NCBI GenBank assembly: GCA_963933835.1
Contig: CAWVVV010000001.1
Location: 256,001 to 320,000 of the forward strand
Reading direction: 5' to 3'
Length of the DNA: 64,000 nucleotides
Source: an uncultured Puniceicoccaceae bacterium
GTDB taxonomy: Bacteria > Verrucomicrobiota > Verrucomicrobiia > Opitutales > Oceanipulchritudinaceae
The notes under the pieces were generated by a model. That model saw only the letters and a program-made list of their open reading frames with translations, did not search any database and had not been told where the DNA came from. This document shows, one piece after another, positions 40,026-47,954 of this stretch (position 1 is its first letter; each line of letters begins with the position of its first letter). The translations under genes were made by a program, and so were the position numbers.

Positions 40026-42590
40026 ATGTCAACTGAGTTCAAGCCGTATAACCCCTCCGAGATCGAAGCCAAATGGCAGGCGATTTGGGAGAAAGATGGC
40101 ACCTTCGAAACAGAAGGTGTTTCCGCAAAACCGAAATTCTACATTCTCGACATGTTTCCCTACCCTTCGGGCGCTGGGCTGCACGCCGGTCATGCGGAGA
40201 ACTTCACTGGCAGCGACGTCCTCGGACGCTACAAAATGGCTCAGGGCTTCAACGTTCTCCATCCGATGGGCTGGGACGCTTTTGGCCTACCCGCCGAACA
40301 ATACGCCGTTAAGACAGGGACCCACCCCTCGGAGACTACAGCGACAAACATCGGCAACTTCCGTCGTCAGCTCAAAGACCTCGGCTATGCCATCGACTGG
40401 TCGCGTGAGGTTAACACGACTGATCCACAATACTACCGCTGGACGCAGTGGATCTTTGTCCAACTTTTCAAACACGGCCTCGCCTACGTCGATGAACGCC
40501 CGGTGAACTGGTGTCCCGAGCTCGGCACCGTCCTCGCCAATGAAGAAGTGGTCGACGGCAAAAGCGAAGTCGGCGGTCATCCCGTGGAACGCAAAGCACT
40601 CCGCCAATGGGTTCTTCGCATTACCGCTTACGGCGATAAACTCCTCGATGGTCTCAAAACCCTGGACTGGCCAACCTCGACCAAAACCCAGCAAACGAAC
40701 TGGATTGGCCGCAGTTCCGGCGCCGAAGTCGATTTCAAACTCGAAGGCCACGACGAAACCGTCCGCGTTTACACCACTCGCCCCGACACTCTCTTTGGCG
40801 TCACTTACATGGTGATCGCACCCGAGCATCCCCTCGTGGACAGCCTGACAGTAGCTGAGCAAAAGGATGCCGTCGAAGCCTACGTCAAAGCAGCCTCACT
40901 CAAGAGCGACCTCGACCGCACTGAACTAGCGAAAGAAAAAACTGGTGTCTTTTCCGGTTCTTATGCACTTCACCCAATCACCGGCGAACGCCTCCCAGTC
41001 TGGATCGCAGACTACGTGCTAACCAGCTATGGCACCGGCGCGATTATGGCCGTTCCCGGACAAGACGAACGCGACTGGGAATTTGCTGAAACCTTTGACC
41101 TGCCGATCAAGCGGACTGTCCAACCACCCGAAGGGTTTGAGGGCAAAGCCTACTCAGGTGAAGGTCCTGCAATCAACAGTGATTTCCTCGATGGACTCGA
41201 GATCGCCGGAGCAAAAGCTAAGATGATCGCCCACCTTGAAGAGCAGAAAATGGGCGTCCCAAAGATCAACTACAAACTCCGCGACTGGCTGTTCAGTCGC
41301 CAACGTTACTGGGGCGAACCGTTCCCGATTGTCTGGGTCGATGAAAGCGCTTACAAAGCCGCAAAGTCAGCAGGAGGAAATGTTGCGGAGATGCTCCCTC
41401 AAGAGCCCGTCACCTACAAAGAGAACGGTCGATCACTCTACGCCCTACCCGTCCCTCCTAATCAATTACCGGTCACTCTTCCTCCCTCAGAAAATTTCAA
41501 GCCTTCTGGAGATGGACAAAGTCCTTTGGCCAACCTGACCGACTGGGTAGAAGTCTACTACAATACTGCAACAGGCGAAACCGCCTCTGAAGCGACAGGC
41601 CCAGAGTGGGTTTCCGCCAAACGCGAGACGAACACGATGCCGCAGTGGGCTGGCAGCTGCTGGTATTACCTGCGCTACCTCGATCCTAAGAACGAAACAG
41701 CCATCATCGACCCTGAGATCCGCGACTACTGGGGCGTGCCAGACTTCTATATGGGCGGACGCGAACACGCGGTTCTCCACCTCCTCTACGCCCGCTTTTG
41801 GCACCTATTCCTCGTCGACATCGGTGTCCTCAAAGAAGCTGAGCCTTTCACCCGCCTTTTCCACCAAGGGATCATTCTCGGCGAAGACGGCGAAAAAATG
41901 TCTAAAAGCCGAGGCAACGTCGCTAACCCCGATGATTTTCTTCAGACCCACGGCGCCGACGCCTTCCGAACCTATCTCATGTTCATGGGGCCGCTCGAGG
42001 ATTCCAAGCCATGGAAAACAGAAGGCCTCGAAGGTCCGTTCCGTTTTATCAAAAAGGTCTGGCGAGAATTCACCGGCGAATCTAATGGCCTGTCATCAAA
42101 GATCCATGAGCATGGAAAAGAAACTTCCGAGACGCTCAAACAGCTTCATCTCACGATCAAAAAGGTAACGGAAGACATAGAAGCGATCCGTTACAATACG
42201 GCGATCTCTGCTTTGATGATTTGCGTCAATCACCTTGGGAAAGCAGAATCAGTTCACCGGGAAACCGCTTCCACCTTTATTCAACTCCTCGCACCCTTTG
42301 CTCCGCACCTCGCCGAAGAACTTTGGTCGCGCCTCGGGAACAAGGGATCAGTCACCGTCGCGCCATGGCCGAAGCACGATGAATCGCTCCTCGTTTCCAG
42401 CGAAGTTTCGATTGGCGTCCTCATCAACGGCAAGGCCCGTGGCCAGCTGACAGTCAGCAAGACGACAACTCAGGACGAAGCGCTTGATCTGGCCAAAGCT
42501 CAGCCAAAAGTTGCAGCGCACCTCGAAGGGAAAACAATCCGCAAGATCATCTACGTTCCTGGGAAAATCCTCAACCTCGTTGTAGGATAG
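40026..42590 (+). CDS. leuS: Leucine--tRNA ligase
   Basis: [37 protein letters not shown]. Confidence 0.98.
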
Positions 42591-42591
42591 C

Positions 42592-43029
42592 GTCCACGAA
42601 TAACACAAATACTCATTCTACATGGAAGTATTTCACAAGGATTTGGCTTATCAAATTATGGGAGCATGTTTTGAAGTGCACAATTCGATGGGTGCTGGAT
42701 TTTTAGAATCTGTATATCAGGAGTGCTTGGAGATTGAGCTAGAGAAGAGAGACATACTATATGCAGCACAAGAGACCTTGGCGATCGCTTACAAAGGCCA
42801 ACAACTTTCGCAAAAGTATATCCCCCATTTTATTATTGATCAGAAAGTCATTCTAGAAATCAAAGCACTTTCCAATCTCACCCCTGACCACCGTGGCCAA
42901 ACCCTTAACTACTTAAAAGCCACCGGCCTAAAACTAGCCCTCCTCGTAAACTTCGGCTCAATCGACAAACTAGAATCCGAACGCCTAGTTCTCTGAGCCC
43001 ATTCGTTAAAATTCGTGTTATTCGTGGAC
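42592..43029. repeat. 19-bp inverted repeats enclosing the GxxExxY gene
   Basis: GTCCACGAATAACACAAAT (42592-42610) and ATTCGTGTTATTCGTGGAC (43011-43029), 18/19 complementary. Confidence 0.85.
42622..42996 (+). CDS. GxxExxY protein (PD-(D/E)XK nuclease-like family)
   Basis: GACFEVHNSMGAGFLESVYQECL, VILEIKA, QTLNYLKATG..LALLVNFG. Confidence 0.92.
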   Translation: MEVFHKDLAYQIMGACFEVHNSMGAGFLESVYQECLEIELEKRDILYAAQETLAIAYKGQQLSQKYIPHFIIDQKVILEIKALSNLTPDHRGQTLNYLKATGLKLALLVNFGSIDKLESERLVL

Positions 43030-43887
43030 AACCTACCCTCACGCTTCCTCCCTGCTGACTTTGATCCGTCGAAACCGATTGCGGTCGTGGCGGGGCAACG
43101 CGATTATCCGATTCTTGCAGTGGCGAGCATTCGAGCCGCTGGGCTACAGGTTCGCCTTATTGCGTTTGAAGGTGAAACTGATGACGCGCTGTATGAGAGT
43201 TTTGGTGACAGCGAGCGCGCGAAGATAAAGGTCGGCCAAGTAGGCAAGATGCTCAAAGCCCTCCAACGGATGAACTGCGGTTATGCGATTTTTGTAGGGC
43301 AGATCACGCCGGGGCGACTGTTCCGCGACCTAAAGCCAGACCTGAAGGCAATCGCTATGCTCGCGATGCTAAAGGAGCGAAATGCGGAAACGATCTTTGG
43401 CAGTATCGTTGCTGAAGTGCAGAAGGTCGGAGTCTCGATGCTCGATGCCCGAGCCTTCATGGATGACCATCTCGCTTCGGTGGGCCTCATGACGCGCGGG
43501 AAACTCAAAGCCGATCAGGAGCACATAGATTTCGGGGTTCAAAAAGCCCGAGAGATTGCCGCCCTCGACATTGGGCAAGGCGTCGTCGTGCGCAAAGGAA
43601 CCGTTCTCGCGGTAGAAGCTTTCGAAGGGACCGACGACATGCTCGCTCGTGCGAATAAGTATAAGACAGAGAAATTGATTTTCGTTAAAACAAGTAAGCC
43701 CACCCAAAAACCTTTCTTCGACTGGCCCTGCTTCGGCGAAAAGACGCTCGAAACAATGGCGTCCTCCGGCATCTCAACCGCCGCCCTTGAGGCCGACTGT
43801 GCACTCCTTCTCGGCAAGCCGGGGTTAATTGAGAAAGCTAATCAACTTGGGATTGAGCTTATCGGCTACACCACCCAAGATAAATGA
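43015..43887 (+). CDS. lpxI: UDP-2,3-diacylglucosamine pyrophosphatase LpxI (start uncertain)
   Basis: VAGQRDYP, KVGQVGK, LDIGQGVVV, AVEAFEGTD motifs. Confidence 0.85.
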   Translation: MLFVDNLPSRFLPADFDPSKPIAVVAGQRDYPILAVASIRAAGLQVRLIAFEGETDDALYESFGDSERAKIKVGQVGKMLKALQRMNCGYAIFVGQITPGRLFRDLKPDLKAIAMLAMLKERNAETIFGSIVAEVQKVGVSMLDARAFMDDHLASVGLMTRGKLKADQEHIDFGVQKAREIAALDIGQGVVVRKGTVLAVEAFEGTDDMLARANKYKTEKLIFVKTSKPTQKPFFDWPCFGEKTLETMASSGISTAALEADCALLLGKPGLIEKANQLGIELIGYTTQDK

Positions 43888-44537
43888 GTTCCATTATGAA
43901 TAAAGCCCTTACACTCCTCATTCTAGCCTTCAGTGGAGCCCTCAGCTCTGCGCAAATCGTTTTCGAAGAGAAGGTCATCGAGCACACAGCGACGGTTGAC
44001 GAATCTAATTTCGCCGCCGTTTTCAAATTCCAGAACGTGGGCGATGACACGATCGAAATCAAGAAGCCCTCTTCGTCCTGCGGCTGCACTGTTCCGAGTC
44101 TCGAGAAGACGACTTACGCACCCGGCGAAGAAGGTGAGATTACGGCAGTTTTTTCCTACGGCACACGTTCTGGCACACAGCACAAGACGGTAACCGTTCC
44201 GACCTCCAAAGGCACCCATGAGCTAGCCCTCACGGTCGACATCCCTCTTCGCTACTCCCTCGACGTCCGCCTCCTCCATTGGAAAAAATCGGAGGTAATG
44301 GCGCCAAAAACGGCCAATTTCCAATTCCACGTCGACCTACCAGTCGAGCTTATTGGACACACCGTCAACGAGGCACACTACAATCTCGACTTAAAGATCT
44401 CGCCAGAAAGTGGTATTGTAACCGCGACAATCCGACCCACTGCAAACGCTCCGGCAAAGATCAACCGAACCGACTGGGAGTTCAAAACTGCGAGCGGAAA
44501 GATCTATAAAATTCCGCTCTACATTCGGGTTTATTGA
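43884..44537 (+). CDS. DUF1573-domain secreted protein
   Basis: Signal peptide; FKFQNVGD..I....SSCGCTVP......APGEEGEI. Confidence 0.85.
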   Translation: MSSIMNKALTLLILAFSGALSSAQIVFEEKVIEHTATVDESNFAAVFKFQNVGDDTIEIKKPSSSCGCTVPSLEKTTYAPGEEGEITAVFSYGTRSGTQHKTVTVPTSKGTHELALTVDIPLRYSLDVRLLHWKKSEVMAPKTANFQFHVDLPVELIGHTVNEAHYNLDLKISPESGIVTATIRPTANAPAKINRTDWEFKTASGKIYKIPLYIRVY

Positions 44538-46800: not shown

Positions 46801-47139
46801 ATGAGGATCAGCAAACAAACGATCGGACTTATCGCAGGACTGACAGCTCTGGCGGCTCCATCCTTCATCCCTCTAGGATCACTCAGCCTCGAAGGTCAAA
46901 TTGCGCTGGGGATCTTTCTGATGGCAGGAATTTTCTGGATTCTAGAACCCATCCCTATCTACGCGACCTCCATGGTGGTTATCCTTCTGCAAGTCTTTCT
47001 CCTCAGTGATAAAGGTCTCACTCTGGACTACCTAGGGAATTATAAACCTCAGCCATACACCGCTTTCTACGGCACACTCGCTAGCCCGATCATTATTTTA
47101 TTTCTGGGGGGCTTTCCCCTCGCTGCGGCAGCGGTCAAA
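46801..47139 (+). pseudogene. SLC13/DASS permease, N-terminal fragment only
   Basis: FWILEPIPIYATS, LASPIIILFLGGF.LAAAAVK; similarity ends after about 113 codons and the frame stops at 47196. Confidence 0.8.
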
Positions 47140-47141
47140 TC

Positions 47142-47828
47142 GCAAAAGATTATCCTCGATTTGCTCGAAAGCTGGTACGGCGCCTCTCAGGATTAGATAC
47201 TGCCAGCTGGGTCCTTCTAGGGCTGACTCCAAACAGCTCACCCGACCTGAATACGCTCGAACGCGACCTAGACTTTCTTGATCTGGGAATTGACCTGCGC
47301 AGCATCCGCTTATCTTCAGGGCGTATCAGCAAGCTCATCGCCAGCCTAAAAAACTATGCTGCCCCAGGTAAAGGAGACTGGGAAAAGATCGATGCTCTCG
47401 AGGGGATCAAAGACACTCTAACCGTCTTAAATAGCAGTCTCCACCCATACCGTCTCCATACAGACTTATCACCCCTTGAGCCCGTTCGGGGCATCGCTAG
47501 CGAACTAAATCAGGTTTGGACAAATCTCCTAGTCAACGCCTGCCAGGCGACTCAGCCCAATGGTGAAATCTGGATATCAACCCAAAGCACTCCTAAAGGT
47601 ATCGTGGTATCCATTTCCGATAGTGGGAGTGGTATAGATCCAGACTACATCGAACAGATATTCGAAATGAATTTCACGACAAAGAAGACCAAATCAAATT
47701 TCGGGCTGGGACTAGGACTTTCTATTTCTAAAGAGATCATCGAAAAACACGGTGGTCAGATTCGCGCTTCCAATCGAAAAGACGGCGGCGCTTGTTTCGA
47801 AGTCCTTCTTCCTACAAGAGGCGCGTAG
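47142..47828 (+). pseudogene. Histidine kinase C-terminal fragment (HATPase_c) without start or H-box
   Basis: Frame open from 47142: RISKLIASLKNYA...ELNQVWTNLLVNACQA...DSGSGI...FTTK...GLGLGLSIS; the only start in the ORF track is the late GTG at 47604. Confidence 0.8.
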
Positions 47829-47895
47829 AGGCAGTTTCTGTTTTACCTCTACTGAAAGACACCCGATCAAGTATTTCACAGTGCCGCTTGGATAC

Positions 47896-47930
47896 AAAAA
47901 AACCGCGAGCCCAGTAAAGGACCCGCGGTT
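47896..47930 (-). terminator. Probable terminator after rpoC
   Basis: AACCGCG...CGCGGTT imperfect stem with an A-tract on its left. Confidence 0.6.
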
Positions 47931-47954
47931 GAAATGTTTAGCTAACTGCTAGGA

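Follow-up and report, generated by a model that had tools for sequence, protein, structure and literature searches.

In insertion sequences and MITEs the terminal inverted repeats carry repeated protein-binding words, and gene-less derivatives of these elements occur. REPtrons and TIRtrons, the elements of the RAYT and TIRYT genes, likewise have one gene between inverted repeats, some of which overlap the ends of the ORF; their gene-less copies are clustered between host genes, and the type of repeat is specific to the gene (passages on these elements in PMC3733652). The cassette described here is alike in each of these respects. Another kind of small ORF within paired ends is the S23p intervening sequence (IVS) of Coxiella, in which a 28-bp stem surrounds the ORF and is cleaved by RNase III in vitro (excerpt of PMC4990558). 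The PDDEXK_3/GxxExxY family itself (PF13366, TIGR04256) is listed as 'Unknown', with multiple transfers, in a passage of PMC3424549 that names neither a DNA target nor a flanking repeat, and a brief mention in the literature has a GxxExxY protein as the Cas4-like neighbour of a reverse transcriptase.

We analysed a window of 64,000 nucleotides from an uncultured Puniceicoccaceae bacterium, in which a GxxExxY gene lies between leuS and lpxI. The original prediction had proposed either a one-gene element, comparable to REP/RAYT, with ends that the encoded protein would recognise, or a unit whose ends pair in the mRNA and are cut out by RNase III. We consider it probable that the unit between leuS and lpxI is a selfish one-gene cassette of a slow-moving kind, here in a likely inactive form, and that the protein of such a cassette would read and cut the ends of the cassette and leave host repair to finish the move. 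A binding-only, operator-like role is the main rival to this reading, followed by co-inheritance and then by RNA excision.

The cassette between leuS and lpxI

The architecture first described from the letters was borne out. The two 19-nt arms pair at 18 of 19 positions (95% complementary), stand 400 nt apart and form the top inverted repeat in 41500–44000 (Table 1). A single C (42591) separates the end of leuS, at 42590, from the left arm; three ATTCGT units stand on the right, at 43001, 43011 and 43020; and the enclosed ORF is AT-richer than its neighbours (GC 0.424, vs 0.546 in leuS and 0.540 in lpxI). The sole matches of the enclosed gene are to GxxExxY/PDDEXK_3 (TIGR04256, 139.5 bits at a cut-off of 35; Pfam PDDEXK_3, 134.6 at a cut-off of 22), with G26, E29 and Y32 of the motif present; no transposase was found in it and no target-site duplication among the flanking bases. 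The name leuS (leucyl-tRNA synthetase) comes from the earlier description and from sequence motifs. The arm words are of the CACGAAT type, stand in tandem and are not self-palindromic, and each arm holds one decayed word. An exact second copy of the right arm is absent from the genome, in which 5 sites match at no more than 2 mismatches, both arms counted. CGTC occurs once, at the left end (42591–42594); the right end and the homologues show AAC/CAC.

Table 1. Features of the cassette and of its host genes, in window positions
Feature	Position	Strand	Remarks
leuS, upstream host gene	40026..42590	+	ORF; adjoins lpxI in 19/29 relatives
Left arm: GTC and two words (CACGAAT, decayed CACAAAT), 9-nt period	42592..42610	+	
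GxxExxY/PDDEXK_3 gene, 124 aa	42622..42996	+	E29, E79, K81 and Q93xxxY97 retained; Asp69 replaced by His
Asn21 codon, end of predicted helix 1 (residues 6–23)	42682..42684	+	covaries with last base of arm word
Codon 69	42826..42828	+	His for the family's invariant acidic PD residue
Decayed inner (third) word of right arm	43001..43006	+	
Right arm: two reverse-complement words, end GTGGAC	43011..43029	+	
Probable lpxI start, GTG within right arm	43024..43026	+	inferred; 5 codons before conserved SRFLP
lpxI-family gene (LpxI_N and LpxI_C), downstream host gene	43024..43887	+	ORF, profile matches

The right arm appears to have been taken over by the downstream host gene. An in-frame ATG is missing in lpxI, the only nearby starts are two GTG codons (43015 and 43024), both inside the right arm, and the second of these aligns with the ATG of both same-genus relatives; to judge from these alignments, the start codon of lpxI is probably a GTG that belongs to the cassette, a point on which the earlier description is silent. 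A scan of 700 nt at the cassette returned 4 weak promoter sites (0.8 expected) and no terminator. A single 160-nt contig (42570/42582 to 42736/42737), unstranded, appears in each of two RNA runs of one study; it comprises the left arm and the start of the ORF, ends ~20 nt from a weak minus-strand −10 site (42756–42761) and may reflect DNA or search selection. Elsewhere in the window, at 46801–47952, a short histidine-kinase-like C-terminal ORF comes after a 131-aa fragment of a sodium:sulfate symporter, an arrangement that suggests a decayed region.

In a structure model (pLDDT 93.7) the window protein adopts a PD-(D/E)xK fold, with Cas4 SSO0001 as its best fold match (Z 8.2, rmsd 3.5, 99 residues). 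A PDB sequence search with the protein returned nothing significant, and T7 endonuclease I, a junction-cutting enzyme, gave a weak profile match (E 0.26) over the E...PD...ExK stretch; Cas4/RecB-like nucleases and T7 endonuclease I are 17–18% identical to it, hence no function can be transferred from them. Most fold matches start at residues 23–28, past the N-terminal helix, which in the model ends at the GxG loop before Glu29 and carries both residue 9 and residue 21. We read this helix as a possible recognition element, joined to the core of the nuclease. The PD motif of the window protein reads P-H, a feature absent from the earlier description: residue 69 is His here, and each of the 192 other distinct proteins has an acidic residue there (Asp, 190; Glu, 2). 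The acidic residue expected of an active PD-(D/E)xK enzyme is therefore missing at this position, with E79 and K81 kept, and the letters for His69 were repeated in an independent DNA run from a second study. The protein is also off-consensus at 11 of 59 conserved columns, vs a maximum of 8 among 80 relatives, an excess that may in part reflect its basal place in the clade. Given His in place of the conserved Asp69, the window copy is likely inactive.

Arms and gene-less arrays beyond the window

Examination of the flanks of other GxxExxY genes gave inverted arms in all 7 copies of this genome, which lie at unrelated sites of its 1.94 Mb, each copy having its own class of arm word. An inverted-repeat score of at least 12 was reached in 69 of 81 loci (the 7 of this genome and 74 of the 80 nearest relatives, 6 having been left out for short flanks), as compared with 1 of 76 control flank pairs, which were taken 450 nt further out and put through the same ungapped arm search. 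Flanks paired across loci scored at least 12 in 85 of 300 cases, which indicates a family relationship among the arms. The gene lies between two hairpins, not in one arm pair, in 10 of 87 loci. Each arm is composed of two or three C-R-C-N-R-A-K/A words at a fixed period, and both the period and the CAC...GTG polarity are fixed per clade, across phyla. Only 3 loci were obtained when relatives of a third copy of this genome were sought; hence the 8-nt and CACGAAG classes are thinly sampled. Gene-less copies are also abundant: the genome holds 83 tandem word arrays, vs 12, 17 and 22 in three Markov-5 simulations, and with a looser pattern 91 arrays were found away from GxxExxY genes; a looser pattern also gave 5 gene-less arrays of the window's class.

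One could envision that the protein merely binds the arms without moving the element, the arrays serving as operators for self-repression or protection, as of a stand-alone addiction or defence nuclease, and having been spread by another enzyme or by host recombination. Such a role would suit the position of the gene's ATG, which in the 10-nt clade (L149–L228) is nearly always contained in the left arm (66 of 72 loci), and the residue-base data given below would fit it equally well. However, an operator requires neither a mirror array downstream of the gene nor the dozens of gene-less arrays counted above, and it leaves aside the likeness, from arm to arm, of cassettes at different sites. We regard this rival, although the foremost, as rather unlikely.

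Other repeats were seen around the arrays. In gaps of this genome (G000), e.g., C1:88525-88850, C3:18577-18925 and C4:75833-76160, gene-less arrays of different word classes are piled up, often with left arms first and right arms after in a nested-like order, and with common inner motifs such as ACAGAGCCTAAGC. A 3.3-kb cluster (G000:C4:173974-177256) has ~20 word arrays interleaved with three genes, one of them a 127-aa ORF in which a signal-like N-terminus and a D...ExD motif were noted and which has no Pfam match; the cluster is bounded by two inverted 9-nt CACGAAT arrays, and a ~200-nt block within it is directly repeated. A further family of GTAG/CTAC-ended, REP-like repeats (GGGGACAG...CCCTACC) lies beside many word arrays (in G000, e.g., C1:51900-51970, C1:171400, C2:252640-252720 and C3:252895-253010), yet no Y1 transposase (PF01797) was found in the genome, which is 97% complete, and no reverse transcriptase either. 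Both TIGR02436 four-helix-bundle genes of the genome, L270 (G000:C1:432570-432887) and L271 (G000:C2:34587-34895), have inverted tandem-word arms, of 7-mer and 6-mer types, and the 6-mer words are those of a hairpin in the same-genus relative G001.

Covariation of arm words with the protein

The expectation that the arms would covary with protein phylogeny was confirmed, in that word variant and period both track the protein tree. Of the 80 proteins closest to that of the window, which come from at least 10 phyla, 71 have arms of period 9; all 80 of those closest to another copy in this genome have period 10. When 193 distinct proteins were placed on a tree, with a word called for 166–167, we counted 9 changes of period, vs a shuffled mean of 60.5, and 12, 16, 18 and 19 changes at word bases 7, 5, 2 and 4 (shuffled, 53, 43, 35 and 26). 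Because shared descent alone can give such a fit, single residues were examined.

A scan of all alignment columns yielded a rule for residue 21 in the window clade (74 loci, i.e., 73 of 80 relatives with a called word, and the window): Asn21 goes with a T-ending word in 27/27 and other residues, mostly Lys or Arg, with A in 47/47, and the next best column agrees with word base 7 at 0.76. A cause at the DNA level, namely an AAT codon that echoes the word, was ruled out by mixed codon use at residue 21 (Asn, AAC 22 and AAT 4; Lys, AAG 25 and AAA 15), which places the link at the level of the protein. Predicted beforehand, the rule held in 23/23 new loci (6 Asn/T, 17 other/A), which are kin of the first set rather than independent and include two identical tandem copies; they are what was left of 41 fetched loci after removal of 4 without a full match, 5 duplicates, 5 without a called word and 4 below 45% identity. 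Outside the window clade, Asn accompanies 99 of 107 T-words and is lacking in 8. For residue 9, Thr is found with G at base 5 in 30/31, yet 12 of 42 G5 words are without Thr9. By the tree, the base-7 trait changes 10–14 times, with 14 contrasts when all branches are used; supported branches provide only 4 independent contrasts, all in the same direction (4/4, p 0.125).

This paucity of supported independent contrasts favors an alternative in which small genes moved horizontally, slippage and template switching produced the arms on either side of them, and word and protein are linked by co-inheritance alone. Departures at base 4 of the middle word point the same way, as they are mirrored between the arms in 28 of 33 cases, vs 18 expected (window clade), as though copied in register from arm to arm. 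Nevertheless, words are uniform per cassette and spacers are variable: in the 10-nt clade, variable word bases match across the units of one cassette in 135/141 (73 when shuffled), and spacer bases match in 98/188 vs 95.3 between cassettes. In addition, one column predicts the base perfectly across those repeated changes on the tree, and the polarity and period are fixed per clade in different phyla. We consider co-inheritance improbable, and, on the strength of these comparisons, the GxxExxY protein likely reads the words of its own arms.

Within the window clade, spacers match in register in 37/66, vs 24.6 expected within word class, and out of register in 26/66. Together with the mirrored departures, this suggests a step at which one arm serves as a copy of the other or the two arms pair; arrays that are purely binding sites would not need an in-register spacer match, which counts against reading the arms as binding sites alone. 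Such pairing could take place in RNA, as the second proposal of the original prediction would have it: the arms would pair in the mRNA and RNase III would cut the loop out, as in ORF-bearing 23S rRNA intervening sequences. Structure prediction for the 456-nt RNA does bring the arms together as a stem (z −3.3), the cassettes are co-oriented with host genes, the in-register spacer matches would agree with a helix, and the Coxiella IVS sets a precedent. However, mismatches in the sense strand of 100 distinct arm pairs have no G-U preference (66 G-U vs 73 A-C, p 0.61), spacer pairs are divided among G-U (38), A-C (33) and other (48), spacers in the 10-nt clade do not covary, and the window's own mismatch is an A-C in the sense RNA. 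A cut would moreover fall in a stem that includes the probable lpxI start, and a residue that tracks a word base would be left unexplained. To our knowledge, RNase III does not rejoin the RNA it has cut. The arms do not appear to be filtered as an RNA helix, and excision by RNase III is very improbable, even more so than co-inheritance.

Probable mobility and relation to known systems

Alignment of leuS–lpxI in relatives, through which an empty site was to be sought, finds loci without the gene, and none of 29 lpxI loci has a GxxExxY match. In the 19 of these 29 relatives in which leuS precedes lpxI, the two are separated by a short spacer (12), a different gene-less hairpin (2) or an unrelated gene (5). 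One of the hairpins, in the same-genus G001 (L010), is a hexamer array of ATCCTA/CTCCTA words, and the other, in G005 (L018), is REP-like; the site has thus been filled three times independently. The family is patchy, with GxxExxY in 19/29 genomes of the host's family and none in the near-complete G002 of the same genus. The LpxI of the nearest relatives is only 70–74% identical, so that the target site and the ends are placed only approximately. Several pairs of cassettes at 80–88% protein identity (e.g., L064/L239, L069/L071 and L172/L216) are alike in DNA from the start of the left arm to the end of the right arm, and of the pairs above 93% nearly all have their two members at the same site, with no recent move to a new site among them. 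We take this to mean that the unit runs from arm to arm and moves rarely; the filled and empty alleles and the same unit at unrelated sites that characterize a mobile element are both present, as old events only. The want of a recent move would also suit operators.

In 84 of 125 loci the left arm follows a same-strand host stop codon at a distance of no more than 30 nt, vs 25/125 for the reverse arrangement. In one genome (L252/L256, G386:C21) the cassette is duplicated exactly in tandem, with a 542-nt period. Matches were found in 0 of 50,697 phage records and 8 of 72,556 plasmid records, so neither phages nor plasmids are indicated as vehicles. No empty allele was found in run X5, and no cassette-skipping joint in the DNA or RNA contigs of 4 of 15 listed runs, where RNA coverage (7/30 and 6/30 bins) is too thin to establish absence.

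The notion of a one-gene element with self-recognised ends is supported in part, by empty sites in relatives, arms around nearly all homologues, gene-less arrays, covariation and the residue-base match; the window copy itself is likely inactive. Under this preferred reading, it would be the small PD-(D/E)xK protein that reads the arrays of 7-base words at both ends of the element; its N-terminal helix would contact the last base of the word through residue 21 and the fifth through residue 9, with one subunit per period of 8–10 bases. The two arms would be brought together at some step, as the in-register match beyond the word in the window clade suggests, the protein would cut at the paired ends to begin a move, and host repair would complete the rare move. 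Gene-less arrays would then be non-autonomous offspring upon which intact copies act in trans, and a cassette that directly follows a host stop codon and shares its orientation would borrow host transcription. The window copy, having lost Asp69, likely persists since its right arm now provides the lpxI start codon.

Mobilisation by the nuclease is what we infer from these patterns, and cutting and moving are the weakest steps of the proposed mechanism. We know of no way in which a lone PD-(D/E)xK domain could rejoin DNA. Arms of this design also flank the two four-helix-bundle genes, which are without the nuclease fold, so the movement of these cassettes may depend on something other than cutting; the shared architecture is also in keeping with an operator role. 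As a wider and much more tentative proposal, GxxExxY cassettes might be widespread mobile DNA without a transposase of known class, in which a nuclease of ~120 residues polymerises on the arrays via a one-helix code (Asn21-T, Lys/Arg21-A, Thr9-G) and cuts the paired ends and host repair copies the unit behind stop codons, the four-helix-bundle cassettes being a parallel class or a partner.

What this analysis adds is, likely, a testable recognition code of residue and base and a captured start codon. The arms give a very common protein family a candidate DNA target, and the contrast of Asn21/T with Lys21/A makes possible an experiment in which one mutation would switch specificity. Were the protein also to move the unit, DNA could be mobilised with no known transposase involved, and many of the intergenic repeats of PVC bacteria and other groups, a large class, would be accounted for. 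The window copy may illustrate how an element becomes fixed in a housekeeping operon, its end having likely become the start codon of a gene of the lipid A pathway.

As compared with described systems, the cassette resembles Cas4/RecB-like nucleases in fold (SSO0001), except that the helix with residues 9 and 21 falls outside most matches. It shares with 23S rRNA intervening sequences a length of ~430 nt, complementary ends and a small ORF in the loop (excerpt of PMC4990558), and this genome also has four-helix-bundle genes between tandem-word arms; in contrast, it lies between protein genes rather than in an rRNA gene, encodes a nuclease fold, overlaps a host start codon with one arm and, despite a predicted stem and some in-register matching, has no G-U bias. 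In the excerpt, the precedent is moreover an rRNA whose pieces stay paired (PMC4990558), and Rfam gave nothing near threshold at the cassette. Unlike insertion sequences and MITEs, it has no DDE, HUH, serine or tyrosine recombinase, that is, no transposase of a known class, and no target-site duplication, and it is strongly co-oriented behind stop codons. The literature searched gave no description of word-armed GxxExxY cassettes, although the TIR lists that supplement PMC3733652, or papers in subscription journals, may hold such repeats, and these cassettes are apparently an undescribed class. With REPtrons and TIRtrons they have flanking repeats and gene-less copies in common; where those elements, in the passages of PMC3733652 that describe them, have an HUH/Y1 tyrosine transposase and either GTAG/CGTC-tagged palindromes or GGGGWSAS TIRs, neither of which was found here, the cassette has a PD-(D/E)xK fold and tandem 7-base words at a period of 8–10 nt.
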